This document shows, one piece after another, positions 38,701-40,480 of a DNA stretch of 64,000 nt; position 1 is the first letter of the stretch, and each line of letters opens with the position of its first letter. Source of the DNA: Candidatus Latescibacterota bacterium (GTDB lineage Bacteria > Latescibacterota > UBA2968); assembly GCA_965205975.1 (NCBI GenBank), contig OZ242195.1, forward strand, positions 1,440,001 to 1,504,000, in the 5' to 3' direction. The notes under the pieces are model-generated. The model was not told the DNA's origin. It did no database searches and was given only the letters and a program-made list of their open reading frames with translations. The position numbers and the translations under genes were made by a program.

Positions 38701-40480
38701 TTCAGCAACCACCATTTTGGGCATGTTGCCTCTGGCACTCATATTTGGCGGCGATTACGAAATTTGGCCGCCCTTTGCGATTGTGGTAATCGGAGGGCTG
38801 GCGGTTTCAACGGTTTCCACCCTCGTGTTTATTCCCGTGGTGTACATGGGAATTGATCAGACTAAAGCCTGGCTGACGGATATTGGGTGGTTCGGGATCG
38901 TATTGGGAACAACGGCAGCTGCGGGATTGACGTATTGGGTTGACGATTATTACCAGAGTTTGTTCTGGACCTGTCTTTTGGCATTGCCAGCGTGGATGTT
39001 GTGTATGGGTGTGATCTGGGTTGTGCAACGCATTTATCGCGCGCGTATGGCTTCTCTTGCTGAGATCGGCAATATTGAACATCTCGAAATTCGCAATCTG
39101 ACCAAAATTTACGGCGCGCCGGGACGATTTAAGCACGAATGGGATCGCTTTAAGCGGCGTCATCAGCGCCTTTTAGAGCGCGGGCAGGTATTGGTAGATA
39201 AAAAGGCGATTAAGGACAGTTTGTGGTGGAAGTTACCACTTTTGGCACTTATGACCTATTTGGAAACCTATTTTGAACAGGGAACCTGGATCTTTTTGAC
39301 CGCGCTTGCTATGTGGGGCCTTGTACATCACCTCGTGCTATGTGCAGCTGCTTTGCGCGATTTTCGGATCGAGAATAGATGGATATCACAAATCGCCCGA
39401 TTGATTTTGCCGCTGGTCTTTGTGGCCTTTGTGCATTGGCGTTTGGAACTTATATCTTTGACTATAGCCACCAGTGCGATCTATTTGCTCTATCGCATTG
39501 TCGGATTTTTGGCAAATCGCGTTGCACAAGGACGCATTGATCCCGAGCATATACCGGGCAAATTAGGCCCTGTTAAAGGCATCGTGTACCGCGGAGCTGC
39601 CGCCATTCCCTTGATTGGGGTTCCCCGCCCACAATTCCAGGCTCTCGGAGGTGTAAGTCTCGATATTCCGCGCGGCATGTTTGGACTTCTGGGTCCCAAT
39701 GGCGCGGGCAAAACCACGCTGATGCGAATTGTGTGTCGGGTTCTGTCGTCAAATTACGGATCTGTGCTCGCCAATGGCAAAATACCGCTTACGCATCGGA
39801 ATATGCAGGGGGTGATTGGATATTTGCCGCAGCATTTTGGCCTTTATCTGCACATGTCTGCGTATAATTATCTGGAATACCGCGCGCTTTTGGAAGGATT
39901 TAAGGATGGGATGGCTCGGCGCAAGCGCGTTCAAGAATGCCTGGAACAGGTCAATCTGTGGGATAGGCGCGACGATCCGATTGGTTCGTTCTCTGGCGGC
40001 ATGAAACAGCGCGTGGGCATTGCACAAACCCTGTTGCACTTGCCGCAGATTATCGTAGTGGATGAACCGACAGCGGGATTGGACCCACTCGAGCGGATCC
40101 GGTTCAGAAATCTGCTGGCGCGATTTAGCCAGGAAAAAATCATTATTTTTTCCACACATATTGTCGAAGATATTGCGGGCAGTTGTAACCGATTGGCTGT
40201 GCTGAATCACGGTAAGGTGCTCTACACGGGAACCCCGATTGAAATGCGCGATTTGGCACGCGATAAGGTGTGGGAGGCTCTGCTGCCAGATCCGCGTTTT
40301 GAAGCGCTGGAACGCGACCTGGATATGATTACACATGTGCGCGTACCCGACGGGATTCGGGTGCGATTCCTCGCTACTGATCCCATCCCAGAAGCACATC
40401 CAGTTGCGCCCACCCTCGAAGATGCATACCTCTATCTTTTGCGACATGGCGATGAATACAAACAGGCTAACATGGCGTGA
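35756..40480 (+). CDS. RND permease fused to extra TM helices and a C-terminal ABC ATPase
   Basis: RND motifs 'GMLMDNGIVVMENI' and 'RVRPVLMT', then 'GPNGAGKTT', 'FSGGMKQR', 'VVDEPT', 'STH' in one 1574-aa frame. Confidence 0.92.
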   Translation: MTLAGIAVLRPVTTAMFFIGLAILGVISLDRLPVQIFPELVRPEVFVAVTQQGYSPEQVERDLVMPVEREVGKLEGIEAYESFSRQNSGGVRISYAPNTDMKFALLQLESRITRLQSLLPERTRVNVQRFDASDLSASIMQIHVLGEGDINWLREFAEEKIRPELEAVDGVVNAQVLGGQRTAIEIIVDPLMLQAHQLSMSDVRNRINAFNTRRQYLGKVYDGDQAYAVSIQGQFTDLVQIRRVVIKPELPLHLGDIAKIRYGLQERTDLQRINGKAAVGIRIQKDDEANLIELAGELEHTIERINGDLAYENIQLVISQNQAEIMNEALNFLKRAAVVGGLLGLFVLFLFLRNLRFVAVLLLAIPCSLLLTFNLMYMWDLSLNVLSMCGLALAVGMLMDNGIVVMENIFKHFEQGKSPKEAAKAGTDEVARAVVAATATTITVFLPVVFIQSDFQDVLREFALSIAFPLLASLLVALTLVPALASKTLSLASRPPTGTGLLIEMYTVCLKAGLRHRISVSLGIIGALVITLIISFFFMLQQDIRREENRFTVYISMPEGTTIEALDAVVGEIESAVRDLKGVDRFTTSISETQASINVELLSLSERPDQISVDLIKENLEESFGDVQNAIVSYEAIARTGRGGGGGRGGGGGGGIRGTRQATGGFNLEGGAPSEMAVIRGYDFTVLQMLADDLVYRLEELEEIDPNSVRADAERGASEVHVLPDEEVMFDRRLQVRQVLNAVSDANPRGARSNISFLTPEGTEIPIDVRNVEDPEEEGEGIAGLRQTPILGSGGTYIPLVEVSHVRRDQGRSMILRTNQSRRVIVSYNFAEEILQSQPLLEASRAYVQDVVSEMVLPEGYSIEMIEAEEETIYYWMMGIAALLIFMILASLFESLSAPLIILCTLPAAIIGSCLALILSGTGLTSQEAPMALLGLIVLSGIAVNNGIVLIDAIETLRRRGFRRERAVLTASRSRVRPVLMTSATTILGMLPLALIFGGDYEIWPPFAIVVIGGLAVSTVSTLVFIPVVYMGIDQTKAWLTDIGWFGIVLGTTAAAGLTYWVDDYYQSLFWTCLLALPAWMLCMGVIWVVQRIYRARMASLAEIGNIEHLEIRNLTKIYGAPGRFKHEWDRFKRRHQRLLERGQVLVDKKAIKDSLWWKLPLLALMTYLETYFEQGTWIFLTALAMWGLVHHLVLCAAALRDFRIENRWISQIARLILPLVFVAFVHWRLELISLTIATSAIYLLYRIVGFLANRVAQGRIDPEHIPGKLGPVKGIVYRGAAAIPLIGVPRPQFQALGGVSLDIPRGMFGLLGPNGAGKTTLMRIVCRVLSSNYGSVLANGKIPLTHRNMQGVIGYLPQHFGLYLHMSAYNYLEYRALLEGFKDGMARRKRVQECLEQVNLWDRRDDPIGSFSGGMKQRVGIAQTLLHLPQIIVVDEPTAGLDPLERIRFRNLLARFSQEKIIIFSTHIVEDIAGSCNRLAVLNHGKVLYTGTPIEMRDLARDKVWEALLPDPRFEALERDLDMITHVRVPDGIRVRFLATDPIPEAHPVAPTLEDAYLYLLRHGDEYKQANMA

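Follow-up and report, generated by a model that had tools for sequence, protein, structure and literature searches.

Introduction

To our knowledge, the ATPase domains of ABC (ATP-binding cassette) transporters are usually regarded as soluble modules that contact the membrane only via the coupling helix of a permease. Here we describe an ABC nucleotide-binding domain (NBD) that is fused to a resistance-nodulation-division (RND) permease and is interrupted, just after the strand carrying its adenine-stacking Tyr, by an insert of 175 amino acids (aa) that is predicted to span the membrane. The fusion is encoded at positions 35756 to 40480 (+ strand) of a 64,000-nucleotide stretch of Candidatus Latescibacterota bacterium DNA (contig OZ242195.1, positions 1,440,001 to 1,504,000; assembly GCA_965205975.1), which is referred to in its full length as the window.

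Insertions between strands beta1 and beta2 of an NBD are known from several transporters. In the type V exporters (as defined in the accessible part of PMC8386196) WzmWzt, for O-antigen, and TarGH, for teichoic acid, the NBDs Wzt and TarH carry a basic extension at this site, just after the adenine-stacking Tyr and at the membrane surface; in Wzt, this is one cytosolic helix lying at the interface between water and lipid (i.e., the gate helix), which moves by ~8 Å upon ATP binding (PMC6379404, accessible in part). The regulatory insertion of CFTR NBD1 and the loops of ABCG2/G5/G8 occupy the same site and include the A-loop; the ABCG loops (~20 to 40 aa) are mobile, do not span the membrane, and have been proposed to act as a filter and allosteric relay, and no physiological role is reported for the CFTR insertion in the accessible part of the same source (PMC5065228). 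The beta1-beta2 site is known as permissive (Wzt, CFTR, and ABCG), and the inserts described there are not membrane-spanning. Cooperation between ABC and RND proteins has also been described: export of phthiocerol dimycocerosate (PDIM) requires both the type V exporter DrrABC and the RND protein MmpL7, MmpL7 lacks the relay residues and depends on DrrABC, and a scaffold role has been proposed for the RND protein without direct evidence (PMC11539658, accessible in part).

The locus in the window resembles each of these systems in part. As in Wzt and TarH, the fused NBD has a helical extension between beta1 and beta2 in its model; this extension, however, consists of a basic helix plus two predicted membrane hairpins, the NBD is joined to an RND permease, and the operon holds two NBDs, two different permease proteins, and RND genes instead of one NBD, one permease, and glycan genes alongside. 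Unlike the ABCG loops, the insert (163 to 261 aa among homologues) is hydrophobic and ordered in the model. Like DrrABC-MmpL7, the operon encodes an RND-superfamily protein and what would be a type V exporter with two different permeases; no covalent link or NBD insert is described in the accessible part of PMC11539658, and MmpL7 is a mycobacterial MmpL protein, whereas the RND proteins here are of the AcrB family and accompanied by an adaptor and TolC. AcrB/MdtBC-type pumps, composed of an RND protein, a membrane fusion protein (MFP), and TolC, share the PF00873 fold and the tandem RND genes plus adaptor (with TolC in the operon of distant relatives), but they lack an ATPase domain, while one subunit here has ~540 extra residues. 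The best family and structure matches of the ATPase core are the DrrA/GldA/NosF-type ABC-2 ATPases (TM1403, 4yer; NosF, 7qba), which have the same C-terminal domain but are soluble and short in their beta1-beta2 loop; the NCBIfam scores shown for the fused core all fall below the equivalog cut-offs. In a full-text literature search that left out most subscription papers and covered the review PMC8277102 in part, no description of an RND-NBD fusion or of a membrane-spanning NBD insert was found. The fusion is apparently undescribed: its parts and the insertion site are known, but apparently neither an NBD insert that spans the membrane nor a covalent link of ABC to RND is. An earlier, sequence-only reading of the locus had called the NBD topology unusual, which stands for the predicted crossing of the membrane but not for the site, where non-membrane-spanning insertions are on record (accessible parts of PMC6379404 and PMC5065228).

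The displaced strand beta1 is predicted to complete the ATPase fold

The open reading frame (ORF; 1574 aa) encodes, in order, an RND permease, one helical hairpin, strand beta1, the 175-aa insert, and the ABC ATPase. The motif LEIRNLTKIYG (aa 1110 to 1120; positions 39083 to 39115) is followed by 175 codons in a single open frame (39116 to 39640). The ATPase resumes with ALGGVSLDIPRG (starting at 39641), and this part (39641 to 40480, +; PF00005) comprises beta2, Walker A (39692 to 39715), the Q-loop, the signature FSGGM (39989 to 40003), Walker B and the catalytic Glu in VVDE (40055 to 40066), the D-loop, the H-loop in STH (starting at 40151), and a DrrA/NosF-like C-terminal domain. The sequence-only reading had given Walker A, the signature, Walker B, and the H-loop as intact, had put the gap at ~175 aa, and had reported two further transmembrane (TM)-like segments between the RND body and the NBD (aa 1040 to 1058 and 1072 to 1090 by hydropathy); it was accurate in all of this. 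The Pfam ABC_tran match begins at aa 1299 (i.e., 3' of the insert), so that profile annotation overlooks such proteins, and no Pfam family is matched in the 197 aa around the insert.

The assignment of beta1 to the NBD is supported by comparison with a free ABC ATPase of the same operon (27149 to 28042, +), which has no insert and whose core is 44% identical to that of the fused copy. The free ATPase aligns as beta1, six residues, and beta2, whereas 176 residues separate the Tyr from "AL" in the fused copy (a net insertion of ~170 aa). The first strand of the free ATPase scores best on HLEIRNLTKIY, and shuffling of the 260-aa linker (5000 times) never gave a score as high. An AlphaFold2 model of aa 1021 to 1574 (alignment of 117 sequences; mean pLDDT, 92; pTM, 0.80) contains strands at aa 1109 to 1119 and 1294 to 1305 and helices at aa 1124 to 1141, 1149 to 1172, 1176 to 1200, 1204 to 1230, 1233 to 1257, and 1271 to 1282. 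The first strand (model residues 89 to 99) overlays the region of residues 1 to 12 of solved NBDs, and the structural alignments begin at model residues 86 to 89 against residue 1 or 2 of the solved chains. LptB (4p33), for example, aligns over 229 of its 235 residues, beginning with residue 2 of the chain and residue 88 of the model (root mean square deviation [rmsd], 2.1; Z, 26.8), and the best match of the model is TM1403 (4yer; Z, 28; rmsd, 3.9; 267 aligned residues). The matches listed by these PDB structure searches fall on the NBD, not on the insert.

Among 170 full-length homologues, Lys1117 is invariant (170/170) and position 1119, the A-loop residue (39110 to 39112), is Tyr (165) or Phe (5). 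Walker A, the Q-loop, the signature, Walker B with the catalytic Glu, the D-loop, and the H-loop are intact in 169 to 170 of the 170, and the ratio of nonsynonymous to synonymous substitution rates (omega) of the ATPase core is 0.026. The strand beta1 (39080 to 39115, +), though displaced, is thus predicted to complete the NBD fold, as the sequence-only reading had supposed. Two further predictions were set aside: a single-sequence fold of the membrane module (pLDDT, 56) was not used for structure searching, and a complex of this module with both permeases of the operon (score, 0.00; mark, 0.32; controls not folded) is given no evidential use.

The insert is predicted to form two membrane hairpins

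The model, hydropathy, and charge distribution divide the insert into four parts. Right after the A-loop lies a basic amphipathic helix (39125 to 39178, +; model residues 104 to 121; hydrophobic moment, 0.70) with the conserved residues R1124, W1129, and R1134. It is followed by a hairpin designated H2 (39200 to 39355, +; predicted TM15 and TM16; conserved W1158 and W1178), by a second hairpin designated H3 (39365 to 39526, +; an amphipathic start and then predicted TM17 and TM18), and by a basic cytoplasmic return linker (39527 to 39640, +; conserved G1268, Y1278, and P1285). The hydrophobic character of TM16 and TM18 is clear throughout the family (mean best 17-mer Kyte-Doolittle [KD] hydropathy, 1.75 and 2.04). 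Across 72 sequences under 70% identity, the mean number of Lys plus Arg is 4.0, 9.1, 6.2, and 10.4 for the segments predicted to lie inside (the last being the return linker) versus 0.6, 0.1, and 1.1 in the outer loops (0.1 in that of H2). Since both halves of the NBD must be cytoplasmic, the number of membrane crossings has to be even. This charge alternation supports a predicted topology in which the insert starts and ends on the cytoplasmic side and forms two membrane hairpins. A further helical hairpin, H1 (38873 to 39040, +; TM13 and TM14), lies between TM12 of the RND body and beta1 and is defined by hydropathy, by model helices, and by its likeness to H2.

The insert is kept in all 170 full-length homologues, and its substitution pattern indicates that purifying selection acts on it, which answers in the affirmative whether the feature picked out by the sequence-only reading is conserved. 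Conservation lies in the cytoplasmic interfacial parts (R1124, W1129, R1134, W1158, G1268, Y1278, and P1285 on the cytoplasmic side, plus W1178), while the helix cores are poorly conserved. W1129 occurs in 168 and R1134 in 162 of the 170, and together with W1158, W1178, and P1285 they are near-invariant (162 to 168 of 170).

Distribution and origin of the fused ATPase

At an E value of 0.001 or better, 1294 proteins among 7992 scored candidates were matched by the region; the source names of the matches include Latescibacterota, Gemmatimonadota, Acidobacteriota, KSB1, Calditrichaeota, Fidelibacterota, and Bacteroidota, and the close relatives that bear names are Latescibacterota. The insert was matched in 84 of 168 Latescibacterota genomes. 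Because the 170 homologues were gathered by similarity to the insert and cannot show that it is obligatory, a separate search was made with the ATPase core alone. This search yielded 82 fused-type NBD matches (E value, 3e-75 or better), one per genome, in 82 of the 84 genomes with the insert (the match tables were compared by eye, and abutting coordinates were checked in 14 distant genomes). Among the 168 genomes, the core-only search turned up no fused-type NBD that lacks the insert. Conversely, the insert profile matched 146 representatives, and all 23 of those with at least 1350 aa carry both RND and NBD. No stand-alone ATPase with the insert was seen among 10 shorter matches, which are all pieces, or 38 mid-length representatives (proteins under 240 aa were not inspected). 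There was no plasmid match, an Atlas search with the homologue P0074 gave only matches of 0.80 or less, and a metagenome scan with a Rikenellaceae homologue gave one locus, an unrelated ATPase.

In a midpoint-rooted tree, with long branches among the outgroups, the fused (23) and free (15) NBDs form two single clades that are sisters (99/92) relative to 22 other NBDs of the genome, and the internal branching of the two clades is mirrored. These relationships point to a single ancient duplication and to acquisition of the insert in the fused lineage. H1 and H2 resemble each other (hhalign score, 23.9; 81%; E value, 1e-5), as do H2 and H3 (21.4; 70%; 4e-5), relative to control maxima of 14.4 (nine other hairpins) and 14.1 (29 RND windows of the same sequences) and with none of 100 column shuffles attaining these scores, in a test in which one of three positive controls (the RND internal duplication) failed; H1 and H3 scored 11.7, not above control maxima of 12.8. 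With moderate support, the hairpins are likely internal repeats that straddle beta1, one hairpin having been copied across the strand. The fused protein may have arisen when the ATPase of the operon was duplicated and joined to the RND permease and a helical hairpin was copied into the permissive loop. At least three other NBDs of the genome have shorter extensions (13 to 23 residues) at the same site; ABC ATPases at C1:3020512-3021513 and 5406310-5407317 carry basic, amphipathic-looking beta1-beta2 extensions of ~23 aa. A derivation of the six extra helices as a relic of, or replacement for, an ABC-2 permease found no support (hhalign probability, 0.06), and the small permease of the operon is complete.

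The operon encodes two putative ABC-2-type permeases and an RND efflux system

The gene order is free ATPase, large permease, (TolC), adaptor, RND, fusion, and small permease, all on the + strand. The large protein (28055 to 31537) combines an ABC-2-type permease with an M1-aminopeptidase-like domain and a Golvesin_C domain, followed by the periplasmic adaptor (MFP; 31624 to 32697; TIGR01730 above cut-off) and a second, unfused RND permease (32694 to 35759; PF00873 E value, 9e-232). A putative small ABC-2-type permease with six helices (40446 to 41180; homologues place its start at 40446 or 40452) overlaps the stop of the fusion. The small permease has six hydrophobic segments and a weak PF12698 match under the cut-off, the large one has five hydrophobic segments at the cut-off used, and the ABC-2 Pfam matches of both are below the curated cut-offs. 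Matches to the small permease occur in 81 of the 168 genomes, each of which is among the 84 with the insert. In loci fetched from 20 of the 83 other insert-positive genomes, picked for long contigs and spread, the adaptor, RND, fusion, and small permease were present in 20/20, and the large permease was reached in 19 and the free ATPase in 18, with unchanged order. Distant clades have an extra ORF 5' of the adaptor, which was TolC-like in 8/8 cases tested (e.g., L048:14242-15774 and L051:3963-5513). This gene is missing in seven near-clade loci and in the window (gap, 31537 to 31624). The genome of the window has 18 OEP matches, corresponding to about nine genes, outside the operon, and its TolC-like proteins are 21 to 24% identical to two operon TolCs, the only ones of five tried that matched.

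The periplasmic part of the large permease matches M1 enzymes in the PDB by profile (E values to 5e-11), and its Golvesin_C domain has a further match in a xanthan lyase (C-terminal part; 6f2p; E value, 1.5e-9). The HExxH zinc motif is lacking in 20/20 homologues, which makes a holding cage a better fit for the M1-like domain than an enzyme; the domain is probably, judging from its sequence, a dead enzyme that serves as a cargo holder. The accessible part of PMC10885120 contains nothing on M1-fused permeases. Gly/Arg-rich low-complexity runs, which differ in length among homologues, occur in parts of the large permease (~30130 to 30300 and 31400 to 31530) and of the RND part of the fusion (~37670 to 37740) that are predicted to be periplasmic.

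A candidate membrane-anchored gate between an ABC exporter and an RND pump

The reading that we favor, and to which we give about an even chance, is that the insert is a membrane-anchored gate and strut that holds a heterodimeric type V ABC exporter against the RND-MFP-TolC pump for the hand-off of cargo. With two apparently complete permeases and a second ATPase encoded in the operon, the fused ATPase has conventional partners: the free ATPase is its likely dimer partner, and the two ABC-2 permeases are more likely than the RND protein to be its direct partners. The sequence-only reading had suggested that nucleotide binding could be coupled to the membrane or to the RND part. The fused and free ATPases would pair as a heterodimer on two six-helix permeases, forming a type V exporter. 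With H1 predicted before beta1 and H2-H3 after it, the adenine-stacking strand would have a membrane anchor on either side. When ATP binds, the RecA-like subdomain would turn, and at the cytoplasmic entrance of the permease the basic helix that follows Tyr1119 would shift in the way of the Wzt gate helix; the insert would amount to a larger, membrane-anchored form of that element, bracing the exporter against the RND protein. The exporter would carry an amphipathic cargo (lipid-linked or peptide-like) to the outer leaflet or the periplasm, where the M1-like domain, as a dead enzyme, would hold it until the neighboring RND-adaptor-TolC assembly takes it up for export. The pairing, motion, hand-off, and cargo of this exporter are all inferred. 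A bolder version, which we consider rather improbable, is a class of transporters whose ABC motor is connected to an RND pump by membrane helices that extend from the ATP-binding subdomain; each ATP cycle would then drive the ABC permease and also mechanically open or pace the adjacent RND protein, giving a relay from cytoplasm to exterior that runs on ATP and an ion gradient.

Several observations weigh against a gate and strut. TM15 and TM17 are marginal (mean best 17-mer KD, 1.51 and 1.49, versus 1.36 for the best soluble stretch of the NBD), and plain hydropathy counts at least four segments in 51 and at least three in 110 of the 170 homologues. The four-helix count consequently rests on the model and the positive-inside alternation; the approximately four hydrophobic helices of the sequence-only reading are borne out in these and in TM16 and TM18, but not clearly in TM15 and TM17. 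The insert profile had no match in the PDB at an E value of 10, and no homology to the Wzt gate helix was thus found; since, in addition, the sister free NBD lacks the insert, the likeness to Wzt is one of position only. The placing of the insert helices relative to the permease is by analogy with Wzt. No conserved flanking cargo or biosynthesis gene was recognized in the 20 loci, whose flanking ORFs were read but not annotated. The insert is also the least constrained part (omega, 0.145 versus 0.026 for the core; 13 non-independent pairs), and its length varies from 163 to 261 aa across the 170 homologues, which fits a passive anchor as well.

A conserved ATPase with membrane helices in its nucleotide-binding subdomain, joined to an RND protein, would be a new wiring of ATP to a membrane machine. 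The hand-off of cargo from ABC to RND, an open question for DrrABC-MmpL7, becomes testable, since both partners lie in one chain and can be purified together.

Alternative roles for the insert

Of the alternatives, a passive and rigid membrane anchor survives best, although we judge it to have only a small chance of being right; it would set the height and distance of the ATPase for the permeases, without motion or gating. The poorly conserved helix cores, the variable length, the omega value, which is like that of the linker hairpin (0.137), and the appearance of the hairpins as simple repeats all suit an anchor. H1 already tethers the NBD, however, so that a second anchor inside the ATP-binding subdomain would be superfluous for tethering; the near-invariant W1129, R1134, W1158, W1178, and P1285 point to specific contacts, and a fused-type NBD that dispenses with the insert was not found in the genomes searched.

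It is unlikely that the insert passes ATP-driven motion to the RND membrane domain, with ATP powering or gating the RND cycle in a dual-energy pump. The RND body (aa 1 to 1034; 35756 to 38857, +; PF00873 E value, 1e-179) is of the AcrB/AcrD/AcrF family, with PF00873 over both halves and an internal duplication (12 TM-type stretches expected; 11 distinct hydropathy maxima); ACR_tran far outscores MMPL (E value, 3e-12), and the scores of NCBIfam RND equivalogs are under their cut-offs. The proton relay of AcrB consists of D-D in TM4 and K in TM10. The fusion has D400-N401 (TM4) and N945-N946 (TM10) instead, which, together with the presence of ATPase and RND in one chain and the position of the module directly after TM12, could be taken as signs of such a pump. 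This D-N/N-N pattern is ordinary, however, being the commonest among the 19 RND proteins of this genome, which lack an ATPase; it is therefore no sign of a dead proton path and is uninformative on energy use. MmpL7, without relay residues and dependent on DrrABC, would be in line with such a pump (PMC11539658, in part), while the conventional partners encoded by the operon (i.e., two permeases and a second ATPase) speak against it.

A regulatory sensor of lipid, of the lipid tail of the cargo, or of the membrane state, which would switch the ATPase by moving the A-loop, in the manner of a CFTR or ABCG loop embedded in the membrane, is very unlikely. The insert does start right after the adenine-stacking Tyr, at the site of the proposed ABCG filter and relay, but the CFTR insertion there has no reported physiological role (both from the accessible part of PMC5065228). 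No conserved polar pocket was found in the helix cores across the 170 homologues, where His at 1170, for instance, occurs in 102 only.

We consider it highly improbable that the helices are re-entrant or surface-lying hairpins that do not fully cross the membrane. The marginal TM15 and TM17 and the outer loops of just a few residues would agree with this, but the positive-inside alternation is strong, TM16 and TM18 reach a KD of at least 1.6 in 61% and 82% of the homologues, and the model helices are 24 to 27 residues long. Finally, an assembly error or an intein, intron, or mobile element removed before the protein works can be dismissed as next to impossible, since one contig of run X19 covers 38800 to 40480 unbroken (seven differences and no gaps), contigs of relatives from three RNA libraries (3 of the 15 RNA rows; such libraries can contain DNA) cross both insert borders without a joint, the insert has no Pfam match and no intein terminal residues, no insert-free alleles were found, and the 170 full-length homologues retain it under purifying selection.

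Other features near the operon

Upstream of fdhD and the operon, positions 21937 to 25272 encode a secreted-type protein of 1111 aa with five lamin-tail domains and a C-terminal FlgD immunoglobulin-like domain; it was not seen beside the operon in the fetched relatives, whose loci mostly end at the free ATPase. The cumulative GC skew reaches its genome-wide maximum at position 42096 (C1:1482096), which lies ~900 bases downstream of the operon; the surrounding stretch is low in GC, and the coding strand changes there as well. This maximum likely marks the replication terminus. Adjoining this skew switch, positions 42611 to 43219 (- strand) encode a MerR/HTH_17 helix-turn-helix protein with a long charged tail.

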